Assembly (NCBI GenBank): GCA_034530615.2
Contig: JAVRCV020000046.1
Location: 32,001 to 96,000, forward strand
Length of the DNA stretch: 64,000 nucleotides
Reading direction: 5' to 3'
Source of the DNA: Aulosira sp. ZfuVER01
Lineage (GTDB): Bacteria; Cyanobacteriota; Cyanobacteriia; Cyanobacteriales; Nostocaceae
Positions 21,001 to 23,655 of this stretch are shown one piece after another. Made by a program: the position numbers. The number at the start of each line of letters is the position of its first letter. Within the stretch, counting starts at the first letter, position 1.

Positions 21001-23655
21001 TTTGATCGAATTCAGCAACTTCGGCAAGTCTTGCATTAAGAAATTAAATTCGATTGCTTCTTCCTCATCTTGAATTTCTACTGCTGGCTGGGGATAGTGA
21101 TGTTGGTAAAGTTGCAGTAATCTGAGCAAATCTTGGATATATTCATGGGCGGGAGTAATATTACTATAAATAAAGCTAACTGGGTTGTTAATTTCGTGTG
21201 CTACTCCTGCTACTAACTGACTTAAGCTAGACATTTTTTCAGCTTGAATCAATTGCGCTTGAGTTTGTTGTAATTCTCGTAAAGCTTGCTCAAGTTCTTG
21301 CGCTTGCTGTTGCAGTGTTTCTTGTTGTTGACTAAGCAACACAACCTGCATTTTTGCTTGTTGAGATAGTTGTATTTGTCGCCAAGCGATAATTGCTGCG
21401 ATTCCAAGCAATCCACCCAATATAGAAGCAAGTAAGTTCAGTGCGTATAGTTGAGATTCAATGTTTTCACGCGGTATAACTAGAGCTATTGACCAATTCG
21501 CTTGTTTGAGATGACCATAAAGAACATATTTGTTAGTGCCATCAATGGAAATAAGTTCTATTCCTTGCTGTTGCTTCACCATTAGACTAGCCAGTGCCGC
21601 TAAGTTAGGATCAGTTGACTCTAGAAAACTAGGAGCAGGTTTTTCTTGTGTTGACATCAACGCTGGATTGGGATGAATAATTGGCTCTCCCTTAGAGTTG
21701 AGTGCAAATGCATAACTACCATTACCGTAATGTAATCTGTTGACTACTTGAGTAATTCGATCTACCTTTAAGCTACCGTTGATAACTCCAATGGGACGAC
21801 TGTTAAGGTCATAACTTTGGCGAATAGGAGAAGCGATCGCCACAGAAGGAATTCCAGTAGTCCGACTGATGAAGGGATCTGATATATTGACTTCTCCTGC
21901 CATTGCTTTTTGAATAAAATCCCGATCCTTGTTATTGGTATCTGCTTTACCTACCTCAGTGTTGTAATAGGAACCGTTCGGCAGCGATACTGCCATTTTA
22001 GAAAATTCCCCAGTGCGCTTAATTTCTGCGTTTAAATATGGTTGAATAACTTTCCAATCTAAAGAACGCGCCACATCTGTATTAGCAATAGTTTGAATTT
22101 CAATAGAGCAAATTGCTAACCATTGATCGATCTCATCAGTTCCTTGACGAACCTGAAGCAGGGCTTTTTCCTGAAGTTGTTGAACAATTAACTCTCTGAC
22201 TATCAAGTAGCTAGCAATACCAATTACCCCTATTGCTAAGGTAGAGCCAATCAAAATCAGTGGTGTTTTCAGATTAGGCAGTTGCTTTTTTGGCACAGGT
22301 ATGGATTGCCTAACTTTGAAAAATTCACGTAATAGTAGATAAGGCATGATAGTCAGCAGTGAAAAACTATAGGTATACTTGTTACCTATAGTTCCCATTC
22401 CATGAAATTTCAGAACATTTTGATTTCATATTTTTCGTTAATACGTTTAATTTGTTTTTGAAACTCTGTACCTTTTTGGGGATTGACCATTGCCACAAAG
22501 TTTGCAAATCCCGTTATTGACGCAATGAGGTTACGTGAGTTGCCCCAATGCTAATTTCCATCGCTGCCGCAATTTCTTCGGCAGTGTTGTATAGCTCTAA
22601 GCCATAATTATTCAAGCATTCGATGTTTCCTTGTTTGCTATTTTTCAAACCCATTGAAACATCCTCTTAAAATATTTACTAATTTGTAATATGCAAACTC
22701 AATTTTATTTGAAAACTCTGCAAATGCAGGTGTTTACAGTTCAGTTGCGGACAAATACATCTCCAAAACTGGATCAAGATTGCTGCTACTTATCCTTAAA
22801 CTACCCAAGGGCAATCTAGAAAAAGAAAACAGCGCTCAAATATGCCGTTCACTTTGCCAGTTCCAGAAATCTAGATCTAACAAGAGAAGGGACATACTCA
22901 AGTTAGGGAGAAATGCATTTGCGCTAGCTTCTTTACTGTTACTACAGACATCACATCGTAATGAGCAGTAGTAAGCACCTACATCACAGAGTCTTTACTA
23001 AAGTTAAATTAGCTACCGTGACGGGGTAGTGTCTTTTGACCCGGACAGGGTTTGTGGAGCAGAAAGTGGATTTGAACCACTGACATTTGGATACTAGTCC
23101 AACGAGCTACCACTGCTCTATTCTGCAAATTTGCCTTTTTCCCTAGACAAATGTTGGTCGAAAGTACAGGAATCGAACCTGCAACCAATCGATTATGAGT
23201 CGATCGCTCTACCAGTGAGCTAACTTCCGGGAGTTTGATGTAGGACTCGAACCTACGCCCCACCGATCGCTTCGGCTGCTCTACCACTGAGCTAATCAAA
23301 CAATGGAGTAGTGACGCATTACTCGGCGATATACGCTCAATCCAGAGGTTGGCGCACCAGTCGGGCATACTGAACCCGAACCATAGCTTTGCTTATGTAT
23401 TACTATTCCACTACTTAATGTAACATAGGCAAATCTTAGGCGGTAGTGAATAATTACTTACTTCCAATATTTAGGCAAAAACCATCACATCTCATGGCTG
23501 ATGATACATGACGTAGCTCAAGTTTTAGTAGACTGTTCGGCAGAAAACTGGGATGCGGAAATTGCTACCCATAAAATAGGTAGCAATCTTTGGTGTTCTA
23601 CACCTGATAAAAATTAAGGAAGGGTGAGAAATAACCCACCCTGTCACATTATTTA

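Follow-up and report, generated by a model that had tools for sequence, protein, structure and literature searches.

Background

Conserved tRNA bodies with differing anticodons are known from related genomes, both as products of tRNA gene remolding and as anticodon-polymorphic odd tRNAs, and the tRNA concerned still decodes. In tmRNA, YrlA, the viral 3′ tRNA-like structures and the MALAT1 unit, the tRNA shape is a handle for tRNA-binding or tRNA-processing factors and the anticodon is unused. Among retrons, type XIII corresponds to RT clade 10 and comprises the Mx162, Mx65, Ne144 and Sa163 group in the classification of Mestre et al. (2020, PMC7736814), where the msr-msd layout is given as terminal inverted repeats that enclose one or more msr hairpins together with a long msd stem-loop, 5′ of the RT gene. 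Presumed retron RTs of the cyanobacteria Nostoc punctiforme and Trichodesmium erythraeum were grouped with Mx162 in a 2019 review (PMC6868368). Extra tRNA genes with encoded CCA are described for Nostocales in the trn operon arrays, with 23 of 26 array tRNAs reported as aminoacylated (PMC8421152).

The locus described here resembles retron type XIII in that the RT of its relatives matches RT_XIII and a predicted RNA 5′ of the RT gene has inverted repeats and a long internal stem-loop. Unlike type XIII retrons, it has an RNA with a structured leader and two or three tRNA-shaped units, the RT is followed by a second copy of this RNA, the RT has been lost from most loci and the RNA kept, and an SPFH/Band 7 gene stands where WH-SWIM and HEAT/ARM partners would be expected. 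With tmRNA, YrlA, the viral structures and MALAT1 it shares a tRNA shape that is kept, presumably without use of the anticodon, but it differs from such domains in having full tandem cloverleaves that precede a retron-type RNA on its 5′ side; ARAGORN found no tmRNA in the window, and the Rfam score for YrlA (24.6 bits against a gathering score of 69) gives no membership in that family. Unlike remolded tRNAs, the units lose loop bases, drift at identity positions and are part of a long non-coding RNA. The genome also has a 28-gene tRNA array on another contig, from which the module differs in place, size and make-up, its units having defective loops and lying inside a non-coding RNA. Our literature search (subscription journals and supplements lay outside its scope) returned no description of tRNA-like units in a retron RNA or of an SPFH-linked retron.

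Organization of the locus

The window, i.e., the whole 64-kb stretch of Aulosira sp. ZfuVER01 DNA that was analyzed, carries all the features considered here on its minus strand (Table 1). The first-pass annotation had reported three odd tRNA-shaped genes downstream of a nifH2-like gene, and both observations were borne out: ARAGORN calls the trio at window positions 23301-23056 on the minus strand, all three score above the Rfam gathering score for tRNA (RF00005, 29 bits), and the ORF upstream is of the NifH family. The start given for them, 22419, belongs to an RT remnant, of which it marks the far end, and not to a tRNA. The proposal of a conserved locus of supernumerary tRNAs holds as far as conservation is concerned, but the units are not stand-alone genes, being embedded in a non-coding module of about 600-780 nt in which a leader is followed by two or three tRNA-like units and a core of 280 nt. 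We consider it fairly probable that the units are tRNA-shaped domains of one long, structured, retron-derived non-coding RNA.

Table 1. Features of the locus and its surroundings (window coordinates).
Feature	Coordinates	Strand	Evidence or remark
NifH-family ORF	24654-23653	-	upstream of units; Pfam Fer4_NifH, E 1.3e-135
nifH terminator-like hairpin	23642-23621	-	upstream of conserved block 23398..23432
Conserved upstream block, probably module promoter	23398..23432	-	columns >=80-90% identical, 149 loci
Structured leader RNA, ~95 nt, 5′ of t1	23302..23397	-	>90% conserved, most columns
t1 tRNA-like unit	23230..23301	-	ARAGORN (GCG, no U33); Rfam tRNA 55.9 bits
t2 tRNA-like unit	23155..23229	-	ARAGORN (CAU, CCA encoded); Rfam tRNA 68.1 bits
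Spacer, decayed copy of hairpin motif normally 3′ of t2	23128..23154	-	comparison with relatives
t3 tRNA-like unit	23056..23127	-	ARAGORN (6-nt loop); Rfam tRNA 53.5 bits
Tail head, two hairpins	22993..23055	-	RNAalifold; 80-99% conserved
Tail core, retron msr-msd-like RNA	22715..22992	-	RNAalifold, 26 sequences; long-range stem closes core
Retron RT gene remnants (pseudogene)	22419..22654	-	matches to RT of same-genus relative
Cache-HisKA-HATPase histidine kinase gene	20383..22398	-	Pfam; at the site of the RT in relatives
Copy B, second diverged module copy	19576..20310	-	pairwise alignment; BLAST pieces 75-84% identity
SPFH/Band 7 protein gene	17841..19379	-	Pfam Band_7, E 1.3e-30; module's usual downstream partner

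Conservation, predicted fold and RNA contigs of the module

The module was found in 188 of the 389 family genomes and in 32 of the 68 genera. In a sample of 150 loci, which are the best BLAST matches and therefore lean toward conserved copies, the leader, the tRNA units and the tail are conserved as a single block (149-150 loci), and covariation is seen in all parts. The leader forms two hairpins with 17 pairs, 6 of them with compensatory changes (RNAalifold, 28 sequences), the tRNA stems carry compensatory pair changes across 30 genera, and the tail has 67 predicted pairs, of which 26 show compensatory changes, the 13-bp a1/a2 stem included (RNAalifold, 26 sequences). The tail head holds an ACCC-loop-GGGT hairpin (23051-23039) and a covarying CUACC...GGUAG hairpin (23029-23013), and its pairs 30:40 and 31:39 change from C-G to U-A in 2 and 9 of the 26 sequences, respectively (RNAalifold). 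The core is closed by the long-range pairing of a1 (22992-22976) with a2 (22732-22715), for which the mean paired fraction over 149/150 loci is 0.945-0.972 (0.945 in loci without RT vs 0.972 in loci with it). The predicted fold has the elements of a retron RNA, i.e., terminal inverted repeats, one or more msr hairpins and, for the msd, a long stem-loop, in a position 5′ of the RT.

Copy B consists of a leader, one decayed t2-like unit and a tail core, and ARAGORN makes no tRNA call in it. When the trio was compared with its own genome, only the two module copies and canonical tRNAs were matched; a high-copy mobile element was rejected on the count of just two copies. A protein-coding tail was rejected as well, as the longest ORFs vary in strand and frame among loci and no conserved ORF was seen. 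Between positions 20000 and 26000, Rfam at E<=1 returned the three tRNAs and weak sub-threshold matches to RT-9 (inside the kinase ORF), YrlA and Plastid-ycf2, and no msr-type match.

RNA libraries contain the module as one unit: two studies have yielded contigs, of 577 and 581 nt, that both start at 23397 and run to 22719/22716 across the leader, t1, t2 and the tail, and t3 is covered by an RNA contig with 2 differences. Neither the strand nor any processing can be read from such contigs, which might in principle include DNA. RNA contig cover is absent at 22300-22707 and 23422-23800, which is not evidence of silence. The block directly upstream of the leader is probably the promoter of the module; a consensus scan of the block on the minus strand gave no sigma-70 site, and the promoter is thus deduced from the conservation and the RNA contig ends only.

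Shape, loops and origin of the tRNA-like units

All three units are recognized as cloverleaves by ARAGORN and Rfam, and none of them was found outside the non-coding module. In the window, t2 is the only unit with a 7-nt anticodon loop and U33; its loop is canonical (CU-NNN-AA) and its pair 1:72 is C-G. The anticodon arm of t1 can be read with a loop of 5 nt or with one of 7 nt that has A33; in t3 the loop is of 6 nt, and positions 1 and 72 are mismatched (U1-U72). Among the 150 loci, the t1 loop is of 7 nt in 101, 5 nt in 34, 6 nt in 5 and 8 nt in 1, with 9 unparsed, so that 39 of the 150 loci have a 5- or 6-nt loop; the 7-nt loops keep CT..AA flanks in 93 and the anticodon CAU in 79 of the 101 cases. 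Overall, 13 anticodons and 20 different 5-nt loops were found in t1, the stems of which are kept with compensatory changes. Of the 146 loci with a parsed t2, 131 keep the CT..AA flanks and 103 have CAU, and the 17 different anticodons found among the 146 retain U36 in most of the variant cases. The third unit is present in 26 of the 150 loci, and its 25 parsed loops are of 14 different kinds, with a 6-nt loop in 7 and loops without U33 as well. CAU is the commonest anticodon state in the 150 loci, and in the largest genus 57 of 70 loci have CAU/CAU. Hence, the earlier observation that relatives keep the bodies and differ in their anticodons was confirmed; the reported diversity of anticodons is real, but the wider sample is mostly CAU, the 32 loci compared at first having come mostly from variable clades.

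As judged from its sequence, t3 appears to be derived from an initiator-like tRNA and is 77% identical to the CAU tRNA on contig C71 of this genome. The spacer between t2 and t3 was compared with those relatives that carry t3 between two copies of a ACCCTGTCCGGGT...AAAAGACA motif. The D and anticodon arms of t2 resemble the tRNA-Asn of its own genome, a likeness that could be read, together with the clearly decayed unit in copy B of the window and the indels within units (a shortened t1 arm at loci L009-L013 and L016, an inserted hairpin in the t2 T arm at L031 and L146), as the mark of decaying tRNA pseudogenes at an old retron insertion site, kept similar by recent descent or by gene conversion with canonical tRNAs. 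We hold this to be very improbable, because compensatory stem changes extend over 30 genera, stem sites differ far less than unconserved DNA in close pairs of loci (see below), and no canonical tRNA of this genome could have donated the acceptor and T arms.

Anticodon variation and rates

The anticodons had been described as hypervariable, and as the only part of the units that varies; neither statement withstood the comparison of rates. On the module tree, Fitch counts at t2 positions 34, 35 and 36 are 23, 16 and 9 changes, whereas N73, the most variable position of t2, has 30, position 72 and a D-loop site have 28 each, and variable-loop sites have 22 and 15; the maximum over the whole module is 46. 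Changes are at least as frequent as in the anticodon at positions 73, 72/1, 26 and 44-45 and at individual positions of the D and T loops. In 46 close pairs, differences per site amount to 0.08-0.09 for the anticodon and 0.015 for the stems; for N73 they reach 0.20-0.24, and for unconserved upstream DNA about 0.23-0.29. The anticodon rate is therefore not above that of unconstrained sites, both on the tree and in the close pairs. We looked in the module for a partner pairing with the anticodon loops and found none complementary, with mutual information of at most 0.2-0.4 bit over all alignment columns.

The loops of 5 or 6 nt, the variability of N73 and 1:72, and the unremarkable anticodon rate indicate that tRNA shape, and not tRNA identity, is selected. 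By sequence comparison, the anticodon is seemingly largely free, while purifying selection and compensatory stem changes keep the cloverleaves; anticodons would drift because shape, not decoding, seems to be conserved. In t2, neither the anticodon nor the identity positions are conserved among orthologues; N73 and 1:72 vary as much as the anticodon does, and the pair 1:72 is mismatched in 115 of 118 loci. Together with the loops of t1 and t3, this speaks against selection for charging by any one synthetase. Alanine identity of t2 through G3:U70 was also considered and rejected, the pair being G-U in 94 loci and A-U in 54, with N73 free.

These data bear on the proposal that the units are working supernumerary tRNAs, the decoding of which is repeatedly reset by anticodon substitutions, mostly within the ANN box, with charging according to each new anticodon. 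Such a role would account for the CT..AA frame and encoded CCA of t2, the U36 of most of its variant anticodons, the low number of changes at position 36 as against positions 34 and 35, and the canonical frame of most 7-nt t1 loops. Yet repeated switching of decoding is unsupported for t1 and t3, which often have 5- or 6-nt loops or no U33, and is unproven for t2, given its discriminator and 1:72 pair; in addition, all units are confined to the module, they change no faster than free sites, and CAU prevails in the wide sample. We thus regard working tRNAs as unlikely. Nevertheless, the canonical loop, CAU, U36 and encoded CCA of t2, together with a copy-B tRNA with UAU in 18 of 18 loci of one genus, leave room for an anticodon-dependent role of some units.

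Linkage to RT and SPFH genes

An RT gene lies downstream of the module in 38 of the 150 loci (26 full and 12 partial genes), with the RNA core directly 5′ of it in relatives, and the intact RTs of relatives match PADLOC RT_XIII at E 1e-158 to 4e-186. In the window, the RT is reduced to remnants of residues 1-38 (22541-22654) and residues 290-345 (22419-22589, one TAG), and no other RT homologue was found in this genome. The histidine kinase gene stands at the site of the RT gene of relatives; L162 (G024) has the same arrangement, and at L161 (G022) the RT is in place. The sequence reaches far enough downstream for an assessment in 139 loci; 100 of these are without an adjacent RT, and an RT homologue (E<=1e-5) was absent from 3 of 5 genomes with such a locus. 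As the RT is absent at most loci and the RNA fold is still kept, it is possible that the RNA has no retron function whatever; in the window, where the RT is dead, nothing beyond the RNA and the SPFH gene can remain active. The caveat raised in the first-pass annotation, that a nearby retron RT might claim the third gene, was pertinent with respect to the RT, but it concerns the whole locus and not the third gene only.

The adjacency of RT and units could conceivably mean that the RT writes the loop changes, in the manner of a diversity-generating retroelement. This is extremely improbable: the best PADLOC matches of the RT are all retron models, no template copy of the units was seen, apart from canonical tRNAs the trio matches nothing in its own genome but the two copies of the module, loci that lack the RT have variant loops at least as often as those with it, and the rates are not elevated. 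A diversity-generating retroelement, which would call for a DGR-clade RT with a template repeat and a variable repeat, was rejected on the first and third of these points.

In 122 of the 150 loci, the module has an SPFH homologue downstream of it in the same orientation. No PADLOC model matches the SPFH protein, and the flanking ORFs scanned (L161, L163 and the window) gave no PADLOC or Pfam match to WH-SWIM or HEAT/ARM partners. The retron-clade RT, the patchy distribution over genomes and genera that is typical of defence genes, and the concentration of most variation in the loops would suit units that act as defence baits or sensors, i.e., mimics of host tRNAs that phage enzymes cut or modify, with loops diversified by an arms race and a strike on the bait triggering the RT/SPFH module. 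Retron systems that act through tRNAs have been published (PMC12673091; 10.1101/2023.03.15.532788), which is in keeping with such a scheme. However, whole genera keep CAU/CAU, the SPFH protein is without a PADLOC match, and loop rates that do not exceed those of free sites give no signal of diversifying selection; we consider a defence bait of this kind quite improbable.

Proposed role and significance

If the units are domains of a retron-derived RNA, one RNA would be transcribed from its own promoter downstream of nifH2, with the order leader, t1, t2, (t3), two small hairpins and a core of ~280 nt closed by the long-range stem. The core matches the retron msr-msd layout and in relatives stands directly upstream of the type XIII-like retron-clade RT, which is followed by the second module copy and then by the SPFH/Band 7 gene, the putative effector. 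Selection would keep tRNA likeness (the four stems, the D/T elbow, U8 and the encoded CCA) and not identity (the anticodon, the discriminator N73 and the pair 1:72), so that the anticodon loops are left to drift, in some cases with the loss of one or two bases. The tRNA shape would, we infer, be of use to the RNA itself and not to decoding, possibly as a handle for tRNA-processing or tRNA-binding factors, e.g., RNase P or the CCA enzyme, or alternatively as a stabilizing 5′ domain of the retron-type RNA; the RNA may also have a retron-like function and give rise to msDNA. More tentatively, it is possible that this is a Nostocaceae-wide retron-derived system in which tandem tRNA mimics are working parts of the non-coding RNA, either coupling it to tRNA processing or charging or serving as baits that report tRNA attack to an SPFH-type effector, and in which the RNA-SPFH pair goes on functioning once the RT is gone.

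If the units are indeed domains of a retron-derived RNA, the locus would represent a new retron architecture, a structured leader with tandem tRNA mimics, in which an SPFH/Band 7 neighbour replaces a known retron effector and the RNA outlives the RT in most genomes. It would also be a clean natural example in which selection preserves the shape of a tRNA but not its identity, with a bearing on the recruitment of tRNA-like domains by other RNAs and on the tRNA gene counts made by annotation pipelines. Since the locus is found in about half of the 389 family genomes, these predictions are testable in culturable Nostoc strains. The labels that ARAGORN assigns to the units are Met, Arg, Ile, Lys and others.

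tRNA-Shaped Units Within a Conserved Non-Coding Module

Exactly three tRNA-type genes (t1, t2, and t3), each on the minus strand, were called by ARAGORN across the 64-kb window, and they are the only Rfam matches at gathering score between 20000 and 26000. From manual reading, t1 has an anticodon stem GCCGA/UCGGU enclosing 5 bases or, alternatively, a 7-nt loop whose position 33 is A; in t2 the loop is normal (CU-CAU-AA) and CCA is encoded, and t3 combines a 6-nt loop with a U1-U72 mismatch. The first-pass annotation had taken the trio for supernumerary tRNAs that switch decoding identity; this reading finds no support in t1 and t3, in view of their 5- and 6-nt loops and the loops without U33, and is unproven for t2. 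Among the 74 tRNA calls (ARAGORN) of the same genome, the closest body to t3 is an initiator-like CAU tRNA (77%) and that to t2 is tRNA-Asn (73%, in the D and anticodon arms), and t1 has no close body (best 68%). Twenty-eight of these calls form a tandem array of 2.6 kb on another contig (C32:178953-181569), outside the window and unrelated in place to the trio, of the kind described from Nostocales (PMC8421152).

Features of the window around the tRNA-shaped units
Feature	Position	Strand	Remarks
NifH-family ORF, upstream of the trio	24654-23653		Pfam E 1.3e-135
Terminator-like hairpin of the NifH-family ORF	23642-23621		
t1	23301-23230	minus	ARAGORN anticodon "GCG"; Rfam tRNA model 55.9 bits (gathering score 29)
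t2	23229-23155	minus	ARAGORN anticodon CAU; Rfam tRNA model 68.1 bits (gathering score 29)
t3	23127-23056	minus	ARAGORN, loop 1 base short; Rfam tRNA model 53.5 bits (gathering score 29)
Predicted stem closing the tail core (arms a1/a2)	22992-22976 with 22732-22715		13 bp, long-range
Reverse transcriptase remnants	22541-22654 and 22419-22589		one stop
Cache-HisKA-HATPase histidine kinase gene	20383-22398	minus	
Diverged module copy (module B)	~20310-19576		one decayed t2-like unit
SPFH/Band 7 gene, behind module B	19379-17841	minus	

The units are embedded in a longer conserved module. The ∼130 nt upstream of t1 (leader) are >80–90% identical across 149 loci of relatives and the ∼350–450 nt that follow the last tRNA unit (tail) are 80–99% identical across 150 loci; the tail has no consistent ORF, as its longest ORFs vary in strand and frame among loci. 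Folding of 28 leader sequences gives two hairpins, and 6 of the 17 pairs show compensatory changes. The tail, from 26 sequences, is predicted to form two small head hairpins and a ∼280-nt core closed by the a1/a2 stem, and 26 of its 67 pairs show compensatory changes. The genome itself carries only two copies, that of the trio (module A) and the diverged module B. Across the family, 188 of 389 genomes have the tail; they represent 32 of 68 genera, within which its occurrence is patchy. In several genera (e.g., loci L126, L128, L134, and L046), the tail has an extra mini-domain, missing from the window copy, between its second head hairpin and the core: a GGGAGAAAUCCC-type hairpin and, after it, a T-loop-like one (GGTTCGAnTCC). 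Many relatives (e.g., L025, L137, and L152) have a conserved palindrome, TGTAGTA..TACTACA/TGTAATA, directly after the tail and before the SPFH gene, where it may serve as an operator or as a second promoter. At L164 (genome G287), a 436-aa ORF, at a guess an IS transposase, splits module A between t2 and the core, with a reverse transcriptase (RT) and a second module downstream.

We compared four RNA-library runs by their contigs, in which strand, level, and processing are not readable and DNA carry-over is possible. Two whole contigs of 577 and 581 nt, from two studies, span 23397 to 22719/22716 and contain leader, t1, t2, and tail in one piece, skipping t3 as expected of pair-type relatives; a third run gave a 236-nt contig with two differences, covering t3, t2, and part of t1. 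Both whole contigs stop at the edges of the conserved block, near the a2 arm. That two studies share these ends hints, weakly but consistently, at a single transcript that starts at the conserved upstream block and reaches as far as the end of the core.

Strong Constraint on Shape and Relaxed Constraint on Identity

A DNA search gave matches at E<=1e-12 in 323 of 389 family genomes, scores near 5e-13 representing canonical tRNA-Asn only. The best 150 loci, one per genome, formed the comparison set, which leans towards window-like copies. The t1–t2 region is present in all 150 and t3 in 26. Parsing of t2 (146 loci) gave CAU in 103 and 16 further anticodons across the remaining 43, with the CT..AA loop flanks kept in 131. 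The t1 loop has 7 nt in 101 loci (CAU in 79, 12 further anticodons across 22), 5 nt in 34 (20 different sequences), 6 nt in five, and 8 nt in one, nine loci being unparsable due to deletions. In the 25 parsed t3 units, the stem is fixed and 14 different loops occur, seven of 6 nt and some without U33. The earlier observation that bodies are kept and anticodons differ is thus borne out across the 150 loci, but CAU is the common state (CAU/CAU in 57 of the 70 loci of the largest genus), and the 32 loci sampled at first came mostly from variable clades. In two unrelated genomes (L031 and L146), the T loop of t2 is interrupted by a short GC-rich hairpin of ∼30 nt.

Changes per column were estimated by Fitch counts on a FastTree phylogeny of 679 whole-module columns with <20% gaps (150 loci, anticodon-loop columns excluded); caveats are that the tree rests on the module's own sequence and that the columns were aligned automatically. 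Over all columns the median was 9, the 90th percentile 25, and the maximum 46. The t2 anticodon positions changed 23, 16, and 9 times; N73 changed 30 times, position 72 and a D-loop site 28 times each, position 26 18 times, and two variable-loop sites 22 and 15 times. In t1, counts were 17 and 14 for the only two anticodon columns that survived the gap filter, 37 for a T-loop site, and 27 for each of two variable-loop sites. In 46 close locus pairs (non-tRNA module parts differing by <=6%), differences per site at the three central loop bases were 0.083 in t1 and 0.094 in t2; the values were 0.015 for stems, 0.046 for the remaining module, 0.20–0.24 for N73, and a rough ∼0.23–0.29 for unconserved DNA further upstream, where some alignments are possibly non-homologous. 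Neither the Fitch counts nor the close pairs gave any sign of an anticodon rate above neutral, and since other sites change as much, the description of "anticodons alone" as "hypervariable" is not confirmed, although the underlying observation was largely right. Compensatory changes preserve stems (e.g., T-stem pair 1 A-U/G-C and pair 2 C-G/U-A), and the t2 pair 1:72 is mismatched in 115 of 118 loci. The picture is one of tRNA-identity features under relaxed constraint and tRNA-shape features under strong constraint. If the units are domains of a larger RNA, as seems rather probable (see below), the shape is selected and the anticodons drift, the tRNA shape perhaps serving as a processing handle, a stabilizer, or a bait.

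Linkage to Reverse Transcriptase and SPFH Genes

Downstream of the module, 122 of the 150 loci have an SPFH/Band 7 gene in the same orientation. Between the two, an RT is full length in 26 loci, partial in 12, cut by the locus end in one, and absent in 100 that have at least 1.7 kb of downstream sequence; 11 loci fall in none of these groups. The relatives' RT matches PADLOC RT_XIII (E 1e-158 to 4e-186) and Pfam RVT_1, and the gene order of RT-bearing loci is module A (t1, t2, and sometimes t3), RT, module B (one tRNA unit; UAU in 18 of 18 loci of one genus), and SPFH. Only two remnants of the RT are left in the window, and the feature first annotated began at 22419 because a remnant ends there; the histidine kinase gene fills the RT's place, as it does in L162 of genome G024, and G022 of the same genus retains the RT. 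Of the RT homologues (E<=1e-40 in 29 genomes of an even sample of 401 from the phylum), 30 loci were fetched and only two carry the module, one in Nostocaceae and one in another family; the other paralogues, with open frames mostly of 435–620 aa, have no tRNA within 1.5 kb, and one of the 30 loci has ordinary tRNAs on the opposite strand.

Mestre et al. (2020; PMC7736814) characterize type XIII retrons by RT clade 10 (Mx162 group), by WH-SWIM and HEAT/ARM partners, and by a distinct ncRNA structure; in their description, msr-msd RNA is closed by terminal inverted repeats and contains a long msd stem-loop besides one to three msr hairpins. The predicted fold of the tail core matches the layout and position of msr-msd RNA, whereas the WH-SWIM and HEAT/ARM partners were not matched in the few loci scanned. 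The best-supported reading of t1–t3, which we consider rather probable, is as tRNA-shaped domains of a non-coding RNA that is of retron type, or derived from a retron, and is linked to an SPFH gene; searches of a paper library gave no description of such an RNA. Evidence against a working retron comes from the distribution of the RT. No RT homologue occurs elsewhere in the genome itself, nor at E<=1e-5 in three of five RT-less genomes. Most loci lack the RT, yet their a1/a2 stem is equally well paired (mean pairing 0.945 without RT, n = 100, versus 0.972 with RT, n = 25), so that either the RNA and the SPFH gene act together without need of reverse transcription, or the RT has been lost recently and repeatedly. 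The SPFH protein (also L106, 1595-3262) has ∼280 N-terminal residues without a Pfam match, which from their sequence seem to be a threefold repeat of the first SPFH-fold strands. In one genus (L163, 6564-7136, minus strand, and L164), module B and the SPFH gene are separated by a Ribonuc_L-PSP (RidA-like) gene of 190–199 aa.
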